Virus genome (UHGV): UHGV-0195723
Length of the DNA: 10,150 bases
DNA from: a virus
Strand: one strand, 5' to 3'
Every line of letters starts with the position of its first letter. Position 1 is the stretch's first letter. Under the pieces are notes generated by a model that searched no databases, was not told where the DNA came from, and was given only the letters and a program-made list of their open reading frames with translations. Shown here in pieces: positions 1 through 5,782 of this stretch. A program made the translations under genes and the position numbers.

Positions 1-1116
1 ATTGTACGTGACCGGATCGTTAAACGTTATCATGCTAAATCCAGACAACCGTTTGATTTATTGTCAGAAATAGGGCGAGACAGCGTTGGTGCCGTGACGT
101 TAGTCCCCGAAGATGAAACCGTAACGTGTCCGATAATGGCATGGGAAAAGCTTACTGAAGCCAGACTTGAAGAAGTATTAACGGCTTATAAAGCAGATAT
201 CCCGTTAGGCATGATTAGAGAAGAAAATGACTTTCGCATCTCGGTTGCTGGCGCACAGGAGAAGACTGCGCTGCTCAGAATAGGCAATGACTGGTGCATT
301 CCGAAGGGAATAACGCCAACGACGCACATTATCAAATTGCCGATTGGCGAAATCAGACAGCCCAATGCGACGCTCGATCTTAGCCAAAGCGTTGATAATG
401 AGTATTACTGTTTGCTGCTGGCGAAAGAACTCGGGTTGAATGTTCCGGACGCAGAAATCATTAAAGCGGGAAGGGTGCGCGCGTTAGCGGTCGAACGTTT
501 TGACAGGCGTTGGAATACTGAGCGAACGGTTTTACTTCGCTTGCCACAGGAGGATATGTGCCAGACATTCGGTTTACCTTCATCGGTGAAATATGAATCA
601 GATGGAGGCCCCGGTATCGCGCAAATTATGGCTTTTTTGATGGGGTCCAGCGAGGCGCTGAAAGATCGCTATGATTTTATGAAGTTTCAGGTCTTCCAGT
701 GGTTGATTGGCGCAACGGATGGCCATGCAAAAAACTTCTCCGTATTTATTCAGGCTGGCGGCAGTTATCGGCTCACACCATTTTACGACATCATTTCGGC
801 ATTTCCGGTCCTTGGCGGTACGGGAATACACATCAGCGATCTCAAACTGGCAATGGGGCTTAACGCATCCAAAGGCAAAAAAACGGCAATCGATAAAATT
901 TATCCGCGACATTTTCTGGCGACAGCAAAGGTGCTGAAATTCCCGGAAGTGCAGATGCATGAAATCCTGAGTGACTTTGCCAGAATGATTCCGGCAGCAC
1001 TGGATAACGTGAAGACTTCATTACCGACAGATTTTCCGGAGAACGTGGTGACGGCAGTTGAAACCAATGTGTTGAGGTTGCACGATCGGTTAAGCCGAGA
1101 ATACGGTATTAAGTAA
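1..1116 (+). CDS. hipA: Serine/threonine kinase toxin HipA, C-terminal ~370 codons (5' end lies beyond the window start)
   Basis: Frame 1 is open from base 1 (IVRDRIVKRYHAKSRQPFDLLSEIGRDSVGAV...) to TAA at 1114-1116. The translation matches E. coli HipA nearly residue for residue from memory. The ORF-track start at 61 is an internal TTG, not the true start. Confidence 0.9.
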   Translation: MVRDRIVKRYHAKSRQPFDLLSEIGRDSVGAVTLVPEDETVTCPIMAWEKLTEARLEEVLTAYKADIPLGMIREENDFRISVAGAQEKTALLRIGNDWCIPKGITPTTHIIKLPIGEIRQPNATLDLSQSVDNEYYCLLLAKELGLNVPDAEIIKAGRVRALAVERFDRRWNTERTVLLRLPQEDMCQTFGLPSSVKYESDGGPGIAQIMAFLMGSSEALKDRYDFMKFQVFQWLIGATDGHAKNFSVFIQAGGSYRLTPFYDIISAFPVLGGTGIHISDLKLAMGLNASKGKKTAIDKIYPRHFLATAKVLKFPEVQMHEILSDFARMIPAALDNVKTSLPTDFPENVVTAVETNVLRLHDRLSREYGIK

Positions 1117-1194
1117 GATATGGGGTTTTGGTCGTTGTTAATGAGCAGAACAATCATGAACCGCCAACGACTGGATTCGCCCTTGGTTTATATT

Positions 1195-1226
1195 GGTGCG
1201 CATAATGTCTACGCGTTATGTTGAAA
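1195..1226. other. dif-like hybrid recombination site (prophage attL): GGTGCGCATAA-TGTCTACGCG-TTATGTTGAAA
   Basis: The 11-nt XerC arm is identical to E. coli dif. It is followed by a 10-nt spacer instead of the 6-nt TGTATA core, then an arm matching the dif XerD arm at 10 of 11 positions. It lies 78 bp past the hipA stop and in direct orientation with the perfect dif at 8507. Confidence 0.7.
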
Positions 1227-1263
1227 AGGCCGCTGCGAAAATCTCTCCCGCGGCGGCCTCTTT
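1227..1263 (-). terminator. Intrinsic terminator for the reverse-strand ORF at 1285..1626
   Basis: GC-rich inverted repeat AGGCCGCTGCG / CGCGGCGGCCT (one mismatch) with an 11-nt loop. Read on the minus strand the stem is followed directly by TTTT (complement of AAAA at 1224-1227). On the plus strand it is followed only by CTTT. Confidence 0.5.
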
Positions 1264-1284
1264 AGCATAACGTCATTGTGCGCA

Positions 1285-1626
1285 TCAGCTTGCGTCTTGC
1301 AGCCGTTTCCTGACCATTTCGAATGCTCGCTGCAACGTTCCTTTATCGGATATGTGCATGATTTCATTTGCCAACATTTTCAAAACATCATCGTTTAATT
1401 CTTTTGCCAGAACTAGGGCGCTCATTCCTAATGTGAATCGTGGTGATATGGGAACAGGCATATTGTCTTCTTCGAAGATGGCGTTTAATTCTTTCTGAAC
1501 AGATTTTTGCATGCTTGAAAAATCCTTTTCAATGAACAGGTTACGACATGTATTTATCAGCATATCTTTACGCTCTACGTTCAGCATGCTGTCAACCATC
1601 GCGTCGATTATTGATGAATCGCTCAT
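1285..1626 (-). CDS. Hypothetical protein, 113 aa, acidic, no transmembrane segment evident; prophage-encoded, function unknown
   Basis: ATG at 1626-1624 is preceded on the minus strand by AAAGGA about 7 nt upstream. A terminator follows the stop. No family recognised by eye. Confidence 0.6.
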   Translation of the reverse strand: MSDSSIIDAMVDSMLNVERKDMLINTCRNLFIEKDFSSMQKSVQKELNAIFEEDNMPVPISPRFTLGMSALVLAKELNDDVLKMLANEIMHISDKGTLQRAFEMVRKRLQDAS

Positions 1627-1755
1627 TGTTAATCCTTTGTTAATTATTCAGTGACTTTTCGTCTATCCAACTAATTAATACTTCAACCATCAAGCCTGCT
1701 CGATTGTTCACATTTTCGCCGCGAAGCGGTTCGGGGTTCTGTGACACCCGAACTT

Positions 1756-1781
1756 TGGTGCGGTTTCCCGCACTTATTTTT
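1756..1781 (+). terminator. Plus-strand stem-loop with T-run (terminator-like; alternatively a ssDNA origin or packaging hairpin)
   Basis: GTGCGG (1757-1762), loop TTTC, CCGCAC (1767-1772), then TTATTTTTT. It is one of three consecutive hairpins between 1717 and 1781. There is no obvious plus-strand gene upstream for it to terminate. Confidence 0.35.
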
Positions 1782-2082
1782 TGTACAGACCGTTTTTTTC
1801 GTTCTCTTCATAAGCTTTATTCACTCGATCATGCCGCCTTTTTTCTGCTTCTTCGTGCGCTTCGTAGAATCGAGTGTGATTCTCTGCCTCTAATGCTTTT
1901 CTTCTTATGTTGCTTACCACATCTTTAGCAGCATCTTTTGCATAATTATCAATAAGATAATTAACTATATCCGTCCATGCTATAGATGCCCCTGCTTCTT
2001 GGCTTGCATCGATAGCCAATCGTTCCATTTTGATTTTACGCTCGGCAGTAATTGCCATCGTAGTTCGCTTGAATAGTGCCAT
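1774..2082 (-). CDS. Hypothetical protein, 102 aa; candidate DNA-binding regulator (possible ribbon-helix-helix-like N-terminus, charged helical C-terminus)
   Basis: ATG at 2082-2080 with AAAGG about 12 nt upstream on the minus strand. It is divergent from the replication gene across a promoter/palindrome region, positionally like rstR-type repressors of integrative inoviruses. The fold assignment is a guess from the residue pattern only. Confidence 0.5.
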   Translation of the reverse strand: MALFKRTTMAITAERKIKMERLAIDASQEAGASIAWTDIVNYLIDNYAKDAAKDVVSNIRRKALEAENHTRFYEAHEEAEKRRHDRVNKAYEENEKNGLYKK

Positions 2083-2154
2083 CTCATTTCTAACCTTTGG
2101 GTGGAATCAGGATAGGTATCTTATCGTAGTGCATGTGCTTGCGTATCTACATGC

Positions 2155-2184
2155 TTGCATGCACTTGTATCTGTGTGCTATAAA
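2155..2184 (+). promoter_or_regulatory. Candidate sigma70 promoter for the replication gene: -35 TTGCAT (2155-2160), 18-bp spacer, -10 TATAAA (2179-2184)
   Basis: Hexamers read directly from the sequence. Two copies of the palindrome TGCATGCA (2156-2163 and 2202-2209) bracket the -10 element. Not verified experimentally. Confidence 0.4.
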
Positions 2185-2226
2185 TTTTTCATCGGTATAC
2201 GTGCATGCAGGCATAAGGACTTTGTC

Positions 2227-3342
2227 GTGTTCTACGATTGGTTGAGTATTGAACAGGATTTTGGCTACCAATTACCCATCCTTTCAGATGTGGCTTATCA
2301 GCGCATTCATCTTGATAGCGGTGAAGCCAGTGCCTTATCTCAACCAACCTTCCAGCACCGTGGATCTTTCTGTGATGTTGTCTCGATCTCGATCCGTGGT
2401 TCAGTGTTAAAAATGACTGGAAACCCTTCCCGCTGGGGACGTCTTGATAATCTCTTTGGCCTTCCAACTGTAGATACTTGTGTAATGGTATTTAATCAGA
2501 TCCTTACTGAACTGAAATTACCCTTATTTACTAAATGTACAAAATTGATGCCAGGACAATCTAAAGAAAATGAAAAGGCTCATTTAATAACTGATGGTGC
2601 ATTGATTAAAGAACTGCATATAACATCTAATAAATCAGTAGGGAAGGGTAATGAGGATGATTATATTTCTGGCCTTTCTACACAACCCTACAGAAATAGT
2701 GTTCCCCGACTACACTCCAATGGTAAGTCAGTTGACTGGCTTTCCAAAAAAGGTAATGTCAACCTTATATACCCAACAGTATATAACAAAGCTCATGAGC
2801 TTGAGTTGCATAGCCTTGCGAAAATTAAAAATAAATTCTCAGAGGAATCTAAAGAATTTAATTACATAATAGATATTATTAATTACTGCAAGGACAACGG
2901 CATTGTCAGGTTTGAGCAGAAATTAAAGTCTCGTTTTCTTCAAAAACAATCCCTGTGCTATTGGGGACTTTCTGATTATTCTTTGTTAAATAAGTTACAT
3001 TCTGAGTTTCTTGATCTTGATGAAAAGTTATCGGTGAATGCTATGGACTTTGAAACTATTAGTGAACATCTCATTAGTCGTGGTGTCGTTGATACAATTC
3101 GAGCTGCCAATACAACAGCCATGTATGCAATTCAATGGTTTCACGGTCATTCTTTTGATTTAAATAAAAGGCAAGTAAAACAGCATCGAGCAAGATTAAG
3201 AATGATAGGGATTGACATAGCTCAAAAATGTAATGTCTCCAAATTCTCTCCTGTTGTTGTGAAACAAACAAGGGAAATTAAAGTGACTGACTGCGTTATT
3301 CCATCATGGTATTTAAAACCATCACATTTGCGTGTGGCTTAA
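2227..3342 (+). CDS. Rolling-circle replication initiation protein, gene II-like (Phage_CRI family), about 371 aa
   Basis: Synteny as first gene of the Ff-type block. It carries a KASPAK-like block (SIRGSVLKMTGNPSRWG) and a VRFEQKLKSRFL block resembling M13 pII VRFEARIKTRYL. GTG at 2227 has AAGGA 8 nt upstream and gives an N-terminus (FYDWL) aligning with the pII N-terminus (MIDML). The ORF-track start (TTG 2155) lies inside the predicted promoter. Start codon is uncertain. Confidence 0.65.
   Translation: MFYDWLSIEQDFGYQLPILSDVAYQRIHLDSGEASALSQPTFQHRGSFCDVVSISIRGSVLKMTGNPSRWGRLDNLFGLPTVDTCVMVFNQILTELKLPLFTKCTKLMPGQSKENEKAHLITDGALIKELHITSNKSVGKGNEDDYISGLSTQPYRNSVPRLHSNGKSVDWLSKKGNVNLIYPTVYNKAHELELHSLAKIKNKFSEESKEFNYIIDIINYCKDNGIVRFEQKLKSRFLQKQSLCYWGLSDYSLLNKLHSEFLDLDEKLSVNAMDFETISEHLISRGVVDTIRAANTTAMYAIQWFHGHSFDLNKRQVKQHRARLRMIGIDIAQKCNVSKFSPVVVKQTREIKVTDCVIPSWYLKPSHLRVA
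3043..3342 (+). CDS. Possible gene X analogue (in-frame internal start within gene II, C-terminal 99 aa)
   Basis: In-frame ATG at 3043 preceded by GGTGA, by analogy with Ff pX. This is purely positional inference. Confidence 0.25.
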   Translation: MDFETISEHLISRGVVDTIRAANTTAMYAIQWFHGHSFDLNKRQVKQHRARLRMIGIDIAQKCNVSKFSPVVVKQTREIKVTDCVIPSWYLKPSHLRVA

Positions 3343-3358
3343 TTTAAAAGGTGTTTAT

Positions 3359-3652
3359 ATGAGTAGTAATTTAGGAAATCTAGAAACGACAGTTACCGGA
3401 AAAATTAAACGTTTTAACAGTAGTGGTGGTTTCTATTACACAACAGTTGTCTCTCCGGCTGCCGATGCTTACAGCTTTCCTCCTGTAATACGCATCAAAT
3501 CAAAAAAATCCTTAGGCCGTGTTGGCGAGGAAATTGTTGACGTTCCATGCCGTGTAACGGGGTACGAGCGCAGCTTCCCTTACACTGACAAGCAAACTGG
3601 CGAGCAATCTAAAGGTTACAACGTTGATATGCTGCTTGAATTGTTGGAGTGA
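3359..3652 (+). CDS. Putative ssDNA-binding protein (gene V position), 97 aa
   Basis: ATG at 3359 with AAAGGTG 5 nt upstream; stop TGA at 3650-3652. Small, beta-rich-looking, and located between gene II and gene VII. No recognisable similarity to M13 gVp by eye, so the call is by synteny only. Confidence 0.45.
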   Translation: MSSNLGNLETTVTGKIKRFNSSGGFYYTTVVSPAADAYSFPPVIRIKSKKSLGRVGEEIVDVPCRVTGYERSFPYTDKQTGEQSKGYNVDMLLELLE

Positions 3653-3654
3653 TT

Positions 3655-3753
3655 ATGGGATCGACAGATTTCCAATCCCTTTATCAACTAATCTTTAACG
3701 CCGGGCTTGTAATTTGTTTCGGCCTCGGCGTTATAAGTGGTGGTCAAAGATGA
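3655..3753 (+). CDS. gVII: Minor coat protein pVII-like, 32 aa
   Basis: Translation MGSTDFQSLYQLIFNAGLVICFGLGVISGGQR matches M13 pVII (MEQVADFDTIYQAMIQISVVLCFALGIIAGGQR) in length and C-terminal motif. It starts 3 nt after the gene V stop. Confidence 0.7.
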   Translation: MGSTDFQSLYQLIFNAGLVICFGLGVISGGQR

Positions 3754-3848
3754 GTGATTTATCTTATTTCTTTGCTGCTTATTGTATCGGCTGGGTGATT
3801 TCTCACTCCATCCTTGTGTTTAAAAAACTTTCTGAGGTTTCAACATGA
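3750..3848 (+). CDS. gIX: Minor coat protein pIX-like, 32 aa
   Basis: Translation MSDLSYFFAAYCIGWVISHSILVFKKLSEVST has the length and hydrophobic pattern of M13 pIX. Its start overlaps the gene VII stop (ATGA) and its stop overlaps the gene VIII start (ATGA). Confidence 0.6.
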   Translation: MSDLSYFFAAYCIGWVISHSILVFKKLSEVST

Positions 3849-4072
3849 AAAAATCTGTTATTTCTAAAATTGTTGCAGGTTCAACTCTGGTAATTGGTTC
3901 TTCAGCTTTTGCTGCTGAAGGTGATGCTACCTCTCAGGCGAAAGTTGCTTTTGATTCTCTCACCGCACAGGCTACTGAAATGTCCGGCTATGCCTGGTCA
4001 TTGGTTGTATTAGTTGTTGGTGCAACAGTGGGAATCAAACTCTTTAAGAAATTTGTTAACCGCGCATCTTAA
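3845..4072 (+). CDS. gVIII: Major coat protein pVIII precursor, 75 aa
   Basis: Signal peptide ending SAFA, then mature AEGDATSQAKVAFDSLTAQATEMSGYAWSLVVLVVGATVGIKLFKKFVNRAS. Close to Ff/If1-type pVIII (acidic N-terminus, GYAW, GIKLFKKF, basic C-terminus). Confidence 0.93.
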   Translation: MKKSVISKIVAGSTLVIGSSAFAAEGDATSQAKVAFDSLTAQATEMSGYAWSLVVLVVGATVGIKLFKKFVNRAS

Positions 4073-4110
4073 TATTAGCCTTTCTTTTACCTGCCAACAC
4101 CGTAAGTTAA

Positions 4111-4133
4111 TGGGTGGCTTACGCCACCCCTTT
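4111..4133 (+). terminator. Rho-independent terminator after gene VIII
   Basis: Perfect 7-bp stem GGGTGGC / GCCACCC with loop TTAC, followed by CTTTT. Ff phages have a strong terminator at the same position. Confidence 0.7.
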
Positions 4134-4145
4134 TAGGCATTAAAA

Positions 4146-5438
4146 ATGAAAAGATTACTTCCGCCTTTATTATTCGCATCTTTCTTTGCTAATGCTGCAA
4201 CTGATGCCGAATGCATTGCAAAACCAGAATTTGAAGCATCTATGACAAACGTCTGGAAAGATGACCAGACATTAGATCGTTATGCTAACTACGAGGGCTG
4301 TTTGTGGAATGCTACTGGTGTTGTTGTTTGTACTGGTGACGAAAATCAATGTTATGGCACATGGAAGCCTATTGGCGCAGCTATTCCTGAAGGTGGCGGC
4401 TCAGGAGGTAATGAAGGAGGAGGGGGCTCAGGTGGCGGTGATGGTGGTAACACTGGAACAGATCCAAAACCCGGATATACATATGTTAATCCTCTAGATG
4501 GAACTTATCCGCCTGGTTCCGAACAGAATCCGAATAATCCCAATCCAACGCTATATGATGAACAACCATTAAATACATGGGTTTTTCAGGGGAACAGGTT
4601 TGTAAATAAACAAGGGGCATTAACCGTTTATACTGGTTCTGTATCTACAGGCACAGACCCCGTGGTAACTAAAATTCAATATACGCCAGTTTCCTCTAAA
4701 GCTATGTACGATTTATTCTGGAATGGTAAGTTTCGGGATTGTGCTTTCCATTCAGGATTCAACGAAGATCCTTTTGTTTGTGATTATCAAGGCCAGCCAT
4801 CAGAAATTCCTCAACCTCCAGTTAATGGCGGTGGTTCAGGTTCTGGCGGTGGCGGCTCCGGTGGTGGTTCCGGTGGTGGTTCCGGTGGTGGCGATGGTGG
4901 CTCCGGTGGCGGCTCCGATGGTGGAAACACTGGAGGTGGTGACGGTGGAGGTTCTGGCGGAGGCTCAGGGACCGGAGATTTCGATTATGACCGTATGGCT
5001 AAGGCCAACAAGGACGCCATGACGGAAGAATTCGATTCTTCTGCAATTCAGTCTGATATTTCTTCCTCTTTGGATGGAACAGTCCAGAACCTTACAGACT
5101 CTGTAAAAGGCCTATCTGACAGCGTTGGCGGTCTTCTTGGTGCTGGTACTCCTGTATCTCCGGAGTTTTCTGGTGCATCTGCTGATATGCAAAAAATTGG
5201 TTCTGGTGACAGTTCACCATTGCTGGATGCTTTTACTAAAGGAAAGTTATTTCCTTCATTACCATCGGCAAAACAATGTACTCCCTTTGTTTTTGCTGCC
5301 GGAAAGAAATATGAATTCACTATAGAGTGCAAATATATTGACATGTTTAAATCTGTATTTGCATTTATTCTTTATTTCTGGACTTTTGTTACCGTTTACG
5401 ATTCTTTTGCCGGGATACTCAGGAAAGGTAAGGAGTAA
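4146..5438 (+). CDS. gIII: Attachment (adsorption) protein pIII, 430 aa, with N1 and N2 domains, two glycine-rich linkers and a C-terminal membrane anchor
   Basis: N1 segment [40 protein letters not shown] and N2 segment [16 protein letters not shown]...[12 protein letters not shown]...[21 protein letters not shown] are near-identical to M13 g3p. The C-terminal domain (GDFDY...[12 protein letters not shown]...) and hydrophobic anchor are conserved. Confidence 0.95.
4826..4972 (+). repeat. Tandem GGTGGTGGTTCC-type repeats encoding the second Gly/Ser linker of pIII
   Basis: Two perfect 12-nt units at 4860-4883 flanked by degenerate copies. A shorter first linker lies at about 4391-4450. Confidence 0.7.
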
Positions 5439-5440
5439 TT

Positions 5441-5782
5441 ATGCCAGCGTTTTTAGGATTGCCTTTGCTTGCGCGTTTTATTGGGTGGCTAGCGGGGGCT
5501 TTAATCGGTTATTTTGCAAGGTTTATTACATTAGGCATTGCACGTATTGCACTTGCAATAACACTTTTTCTGGCCTTAATTGTTGGCCTTAACCAATTAC
5601 TGGTCTCTTATTTGTCTGATTTAGTTGCAGCATTGCCAGCAGAAATATCAGATGCAATATCTTATATTATCCCTTCAAATGCACTACCTTGCCTTTATGC
5701 AATCTTTTCATTGAAGGCTGCGATTTTTATATTTGATGTAAAAGACCGCATTATTGGTTATCTTGACTGGAATAAATCATAA
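5441..5782 (+). CDS. gVI: Minor coat protein pVI, 113 aa
   Basis: AGGAG RBS then ATG at 5441. Translation aligns along its whole length with M13 pVI (LSDxxAxLP, IPSNALPC, KAAIFIFDVK, YLDW). Confidence 0.9.
   Translation: MPAFLGLPLLARFIGWLAGALIGYFARFITLGIARIALAITLFLALIVGLNQLLVSYLSDLVAALPAEISDAISYIIPSNALPCLYAIFSLKAAIFIFDVKDRIIGYLDWNKS

Follow-up and report, generated by a model that had tools for sequence, protein, structure and literature searches.

An If1-type G5P protein with a predicted OB fold in the gene V position of a dif-flanked filamentous prophage

The UHGV virus genome UHGV-0195723 was analysed as one stretch of 10,150 nucleotides (hereafter the window), which holds a 7.3-kb filamentous (Inoviridae) prophage, flanked by dif sequences and inserted beside hipA. 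An open reading frame (ORF) on the plus strand of this element, running from an ATG at 3359 to a TGA at 3650–3652, encodes a product of 97 amino acids. Judged by its sequence, this product falls into the If1-type G5P family, lies outside PF02303, the sequence family of the Ff gene V protein (gVp), and belongs to neither the SSB nor the PriB family. Most probably it is the protein by which the phage sequesters its single-stranded DNA (ssDNA), and is in that sense a functional analogue of gVp, with DNA binding as its presumed activity. This assignment is based on the position of the gene, its partner in the replication module, the predicted fold of the product, and the fact that the 7.3-kb genome offers no second candidate.

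The identity of the protein is given by phage If1. At 84 of 95 residues (88%, E 1e-65), the window product is identical to NP_047352.1, the protein of If1 gene 5 with the annotation “ss-DNA binding protein,” and the two genes share the same length and the same slot ahead of gVII. In the circular If1 record, gene 5 is found at positions 1–291, after ORF320, which ends at 8432. Furthermore, residues 2–97 of the window protein match positions 6–100 of the 100 positions in the profile of PHROG 8473, “single strand DNA binding protein” (E 4.7e-41). The product combines a full-length profile match, close identity to If1 gene 5 and a location between a gII-type Rep gene and coat genes, the features by which an If1-type G5P is recognized here. 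For nearly identical proteins of Salmonella, Citrobacter, Klebsiella and Enterobacter, NCBI uses “DNA-binding protein G5P.” GenBank, PHROGs and NCBI all have a name for it already, and the gene is a known one of low novelty; the impression of an unrecognized protein left by the initial annotation is not borne out, as the orthologue is the annotated If1 gene 5 and PHROG 8473 is matched. This named family has no Pfam or NCBIfam model, and for this reason G5P is labeled inconsistently by PGAP: the identical protein WP_033559364.1 is a “hypothetical protein” in RefSeq.

The window element differs from If1 in two respects. Its copy of the gene resides in a dif-flanked prophage beside hipA whereas If1 is a free I-pilus phage, and at the DNA level 74% of the element aligns to If1 with about 74% identity. 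A point in common is gII: the window protein is 82% identical to If1 ORF320. In the If1 record (NC_001954), the region 7464–8432 is labeled “ORF320; homologous to R-pyocin,” and the identity extends over residues 51–371 of the window gII protein. Because of this identity, ORF320 is read as If1 gene II, apparently annotated too short at its 5′ end and mislabeled.

The G5P gene is located between gII/X and gVII, as is Ff gene V, and in this the placement at the gene V position made by the initial annotation is correct (Table 1). Its upstream partner in the replication module is gII, whose start was placed from a RefSeq orthologue of 371 amino acids and whose TAA at 3340–3342 precedes the G5P ATG by a gap of 16 nucleotides. 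The strong ribosome-binding site reported previously is also present, as an AAGGTG sequence in which AGGTG is the match to the anti-Shine-Dalgarno sequence. On the other side, a gap of 2 nucleotides separates the G5P stop from the gVII ATG, and the GGAG of gVII is contained in the 3′ end of G5P; the spacing is identical in the RefSeq orthologue. As in the Ff phages, gVII abuts tightly from downstream. Translational coupling of genes V and VII is known for Ff (cited in PMC7697814). The abutting gVII start and the internal GGAG are compatible with an Ff-like coupling in the window element. A scan for promoters and terminators around the G5P gene gave nothing informative. In a six-frame scan of the window with the hidden Markov model (HMM) of the family, this ORF was the sole match (E 3.6e-36), and because of this sole match and the 291 cluster representatives that match the family (see below), the ORF is regarded as a conserved gene and not as a chance reading frame.

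No kinship to M13 gVp can be found at the level of sequence, as the initial annotation had maintained. BLASTP of the 97-residue protein against M13 gVp gave zero alignments at E ≤ 100. The Pfam family PF02303 (Phage_DNA_bind), which matches M13 gVp at E 1.3e-42, does not match the window protein at E ≤ 1, nor the If1 and A37 orthologues at E ≤ 10, nor any of 150 aligned family members at E ≤ 0.1. An hhalign comparison of the alignment of these 150 sequences with a gVp-family alignment, made of M13 gVp and five PF02303 proteins, returned a probability of 0.25%, and reciprocal HMM searches between gVp and the G5P family yielded scores at chance level only. The gVp HMM found nothing across the whole window (best E 2.1), and hence no other gVp candidate. 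A single match of the gVp HMM within the family, to the member P0121 (7.7 bits), was rejected as chance, as it is not colinear and pairs the N-terminal wing of gVp with the C-terminal hairpin of the family. A confident match to the gVp profile did not turn up, and neither did a match to a family without nucleic-acid binding.

A confident prediction is available for the fold. AlphaFold2 supplied with the 150-member alignment gave a model with a predicted local distance difference test (pLDDT) score of 94.0 and a predicted template modeling (pTM) score of 0.78, and all five models reached a pLDDT of at least 90; an earlier model from 14 close relatives was poor (pLDDT 57.9) and is superseded by this run. 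The model is all-beta, with strands at residues 9–22, 25–31, 43–48, 58–76 and 83–95 and no helix as assigned by DSSP, and represents a bare five-stranded OB-fold domain of about 97 residues of the SSB type. The nearest solved neighbors of the predicted fold are cellular SSB and PriB and not Ff gVp; Foldseek searches of the PDB and BFVD returned SSBs, and other structural neighbors are the N-terminal OB domains of MCM and, lower, RPA32/14, Stn1 and the anticodon-binding domains of aminoacyl-tRNA synthetases. The likeness to the OB domains of cellular SSB, PriB and mitochondrial SSB is in the predicted fold but not significantly in sequence: SSB and PriB profiles in Pfam and NCBIfam leave the window protein unmatched, and no SSB is found among the 60 matches listed in a profile search of the PDB. 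The helix between strands β3 and β4 of SSB and PriB is absent from the model, and the flexible linker and acidic C-terminal tip of SSB are absent from the protein, which ends right after β5. The initial annotation was right that the sequence is not that of gVp. Its suggestion of a distinct ssDNA-binding fold does not agree with the model, which shows an OB fold, in the broad class of gVp, with SSB and PriB as the nearest solved neighbors.

Two evolutionary origins can be considered for such a protein. Possibly, and we put this forward tentatively, the If1-type G5P is a non-orthologous replacement of gVp, in which an SSB/PriB-like OB domain was recruited into an inovirus replication module. The G5P lineage comprises at least 291 clusters at 50% identity, with Enterobacteriaceae, Arsenophonus and Ralstonia as named hosts. 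If the domain was recruited, its oligomeric architecture on phage ssDNA may be different from the dimer superhelix of gVp, and in that case the textbook model built on Ff would not describe the nucleoprotein complex that precedes assembly in many filamentous phages. Or the gVp function is carried out by an extremely diverged but true homologue of Ff gVp, the two having a common ancestor in the group of phage ssDNA-binding OB folds, which appears rather unlikely. The shared slot, the similar size (97 versus 87 amino acids) and the all-beta barrel speak for it. In the structure of gVp, too, strands 3 and 4 are joined without a helix, so that the missing β3–β4 helix of the model is a gVp-like trait, and the weak match of gII to PF05144 (Table 1) suggests a high divergence from Ff throughout the module.

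Residues conserved across the family (in window numbering) are G14, K/R15, Y27, T28, P33, A34, D36, Y/F38, S39, P41, R/K47, S48, G53, G68, Y/F/W69, R/K71, F/Y73, D77, K78, T80, G81 and E82. Position 15 is basic (K/R) in 97% of the column, position 38 is aromatic in 100%, and position 69 is aromatic in 87%. Likely contacts to DNA are the aromatic residues Y27, Y/F38, Y/F/W69 and F/Y73 and the basic residues K/R15, R/K47, R/K71 and K78. We infer that this aromatic and basic set, placed on strands and hairpins, is the pattern expected of an ssDNA-binding OB surface.

The family is wide, and its proteins have about 100 residues. When 1.84 billion cluster representatives were searched exhaustively with HMMER, 291 matched at E ≤ 1e-3, 40 of them at E ≤ 1e-10, each match being the representative of a cluster at 50% identity; the representatives listed are all small proteins. 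For the 150 aligned members, the medians are a length of 105 amino acids, a pairwise identity of 31%, a net charge of +2 and an isoelectric point (pI) of 8.5. A second, word-indexed protein search that used the alignment as query added only six distant members. A Pfam scan of the 150 members revealed no consistent family match, NCBIfam has no match for the 97-residue protein, and a sequence-profile search of the PDB found no true relative. Antibody VH matches in the latter search (E > 0.01) were rejected as spurious, and a weak Ig_3 match of the 97-residue protein (E 0.1) as a generic beta-strand pattern. Among 50,697 GenBank phage records, the family is found in If1 and “WC36-1” only, and among complete E. 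coli genomes in 8 of 5,426, with a median of three copies in those that have it. The WC36-1 record (PP701473.1, “Phage WC36-1-filamentous,” 1–6255) gives a deep-sea member of the Lentisphaerae as its host and carries the flag UNVERIFIED_ORG, and shows 100.0% identity over all 6,255 nucleotides to a prophage on Ralstonia solanacearum megaplasmids of four strains. The host given there seems doubtful, and the sequence may stem from contamination.

The genomic contexts of seven further members, 30–47% identical, were inspected. In six of the seven (P0151, P0167, P0021, P0023, P0045 and a Ralstonia solanacearum prophage, whose member is annotated “single-stranded DNA-binding protein”), the gene is directly 3′ of a PF05144/PF05155 Rep gene and 5′ of small coat genes and Zot; the exception, P0073, has a Rep_trans rolling-circle initiator and an integrase nearby. 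Counting If1 makes eight other elements, and in seven of these the member immediately follows a gene II-type replication gene. The coat and gene VI-position families in those elements are PF05356 and DUF2523, as against PF19199 and DUF5455 in the window. Because these families differ between elements, the conserved partner of G5P is the replication gene. The region that begins at the left dif-like site and stops at window position 3656 (query position 2557), where G5P ends, is about 82% identical by megablast to E. coli PEC148, G5 and A37, the last with a circular element of 7,439 bp, and the elements that share this module carry other structural genes; in A37, for example, the coat genes are others and the place of gene VI is taken by a DUF2523-type protein. 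The window genome is a mosaic: positions 4245–7811 (gIII to gIV) have about 70% DNA identity to phage f1, while the gII/gene V region is without an Ff match. On these comparisons of sequence, gII and G5P travel together as an exchangeable replication module between phages with different structural genes, and it is because G5P belongs to this module that a “gene V” foreign to Ff stands ahead of morphogenesis genes that are otherwise Ff-like.

The proposed role of G5P follows that of gVp in the Ff phages M13, fd and f1, with which it shares the gene position, the small size and an all-beta OB-type barrel and presumably the role. By analogy with Ff gene V, G5P would be made in large amounts from a gII-gV-gVII operon and would bind the plus-strand circles set free by the gII nickase in rolling-circle replication. 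The coating would block reconversion of the plus strand to the double-stranded replicative form, and the protein-coated ssDNA rod would be passed to the gI/gIV export machine, where G5P would be swapped for coat protein. Binding to ssDNA, cooperativity, the oligomeric state and a part in the switch from replication to assembly are presumed properties of the protein in this scheme.

Several points weigh against a role in sequestering ssDNA. A literature search turned up neither work on If1 gene V or the G5P family nor biochemistry of its members, and gene position seems to be the basis of the “ssDNA-binding” label that If1 gene 5 and PHROG 8473 carry. The window protein is weakly basic, with a pI of 7.8 and a net charge of +1. 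The fold is predicted and not solved, and OB folds serve other functions too. In sequence, PF00436 is matched by one of the 150 members at a non-significant E of 0.028, and hhalign against E. coli SSB, used as a single-sequence template, gave a non-significant probability of 1.5% that covers the β4–β5 hairpin alone.

If the protein does not coat the DNA stoichiometrically, it might act as a replication accessory, either as a PriB-like factor that helps to load the primosome or a helicase onto phage DNA or as a modulator of gII. This is improbable: filamentous phages depend on a protein that sequesters ssDNA, for which the 7.3-kb element offers no other candidate, the gene is linked to gVII and the coat genes as tightly as Ff gene V is, and the likeness to PriB is at the level of fold only, with no match to the PriB or SSB family by sequence. 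Fold, position and conserved synteny alike speak against the accessory role in replication or packaging that the initial annotation had raised. Least likely is an OB-fold protein without a role on nucleic acids, such as an assembly chaperone or a protein-directed packaging adaptor, for which the versatility of the OB fold and the near-neutral pI speak.

The family gains a confident predicted fold, that of an SSB/PriB-like OB domain, and a curated G5P profile would give better annotation of inoviruses. The interest that remains is in a widespread inovirus family with presumed ssDNA binding that has neither a curated profile nor a structure. The practical value of the finding is limited; it bears on whether the gVp model of ssDNA sequestration extends beyond the Ff phages.

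The remaining features of the window are collected in Table 1. At the right end of the prophage, positions 8507–8534 are an exact 28-bp E. coli dif site, for which 200 shuffles gave 0 matches, and a dif-like half-copy, TGGTGCGCATAATGTCTA, is found at 1194–1211, just past hipA and 7,312 bp to the left of the right dif. From the dif site at the right and the dif-like copy at the left, the prophage looks Xer-integrated at the chromosome dimer-resolution site. The two leftward ORFs between the left dif-like site and gII probably form a regulatory module.

Table 1. Coordinates of the features in the window.
Feature	Position	Strand	Match or remark
hipA, C-terminal part (left host flank)	61..1116		PF07804, E 2e-52
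Replication/regulation module (two leftward ORFs, gII, G5P)	1194..3656	+	about 82% identical to other E. coli inoviruses (megablast)
Leftward ORF, 113 amino acids	1285..1626	-	no family
Leftward ORF, 102 amino acids	1774..2082	-	phrog_2503 (unknown function), E 4.8e-25; faint ParG/HLH hints
Gene II-type rolling-circle replication initiator	2227..3342	+	PF05155, E 6e-24; PF05144, E 1.7e-4; phrog_702, E 1.5e-104
Shine-Dalgarno AAGGTG	3348..3353	+	5 nucleotides before the G5P ATG; read from sequence
If1-type G5P gene	3359..3652	+	predicted OB-fold ssDNA-binding protein; gene V position
Gene VII, tail virion protein G7P	3655..3753	+	PF19978, E 1.1e-17
gIX	3750..3848		
Major coat protein	3845..4072		PF19199
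g3p	4146..5438		PF05357
g6p	5441..5782		
gI/Zot	5782..6846		PF05707
Secretin gIV	6827..8113		PF00263
Fimbrial subunit (right host flank)	9292..9903		PF00419, E 7e-31

Within gene III, two glycine/serine-rich linker repeats of the GGGS type, with a periodicity of 9–15 nucleotides, occupy 4391–4445 and 4823–4985, as in Ff g3p. A perfect 16-bp GC-rich hairpin with a 3-nucleotide loop is located at 8126–8160, 13 nucleotides past the gIV stop, where Ff phages have the packaging signal and a terminator; the GC-rich intergenic region around it (8114–8506) has a GC content of about 0.5 and a DNA fold z-score of −2.1. Rfam gave no match over the whole window. Copies related to this prophage are also found in head-to-tail tandem arrays, in E. 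coli SW071618 (2001–11174) and on a plasmid of Klebsiella sp. LY (1–10586). Five copy sites are present in one E. coli chromosome and four on a 316-kb Klebsiella plasmid, which is typed as conjugative by PLSDB (IncU replicon) and whose prophage copies encode a 100% identical 97-residue protein.
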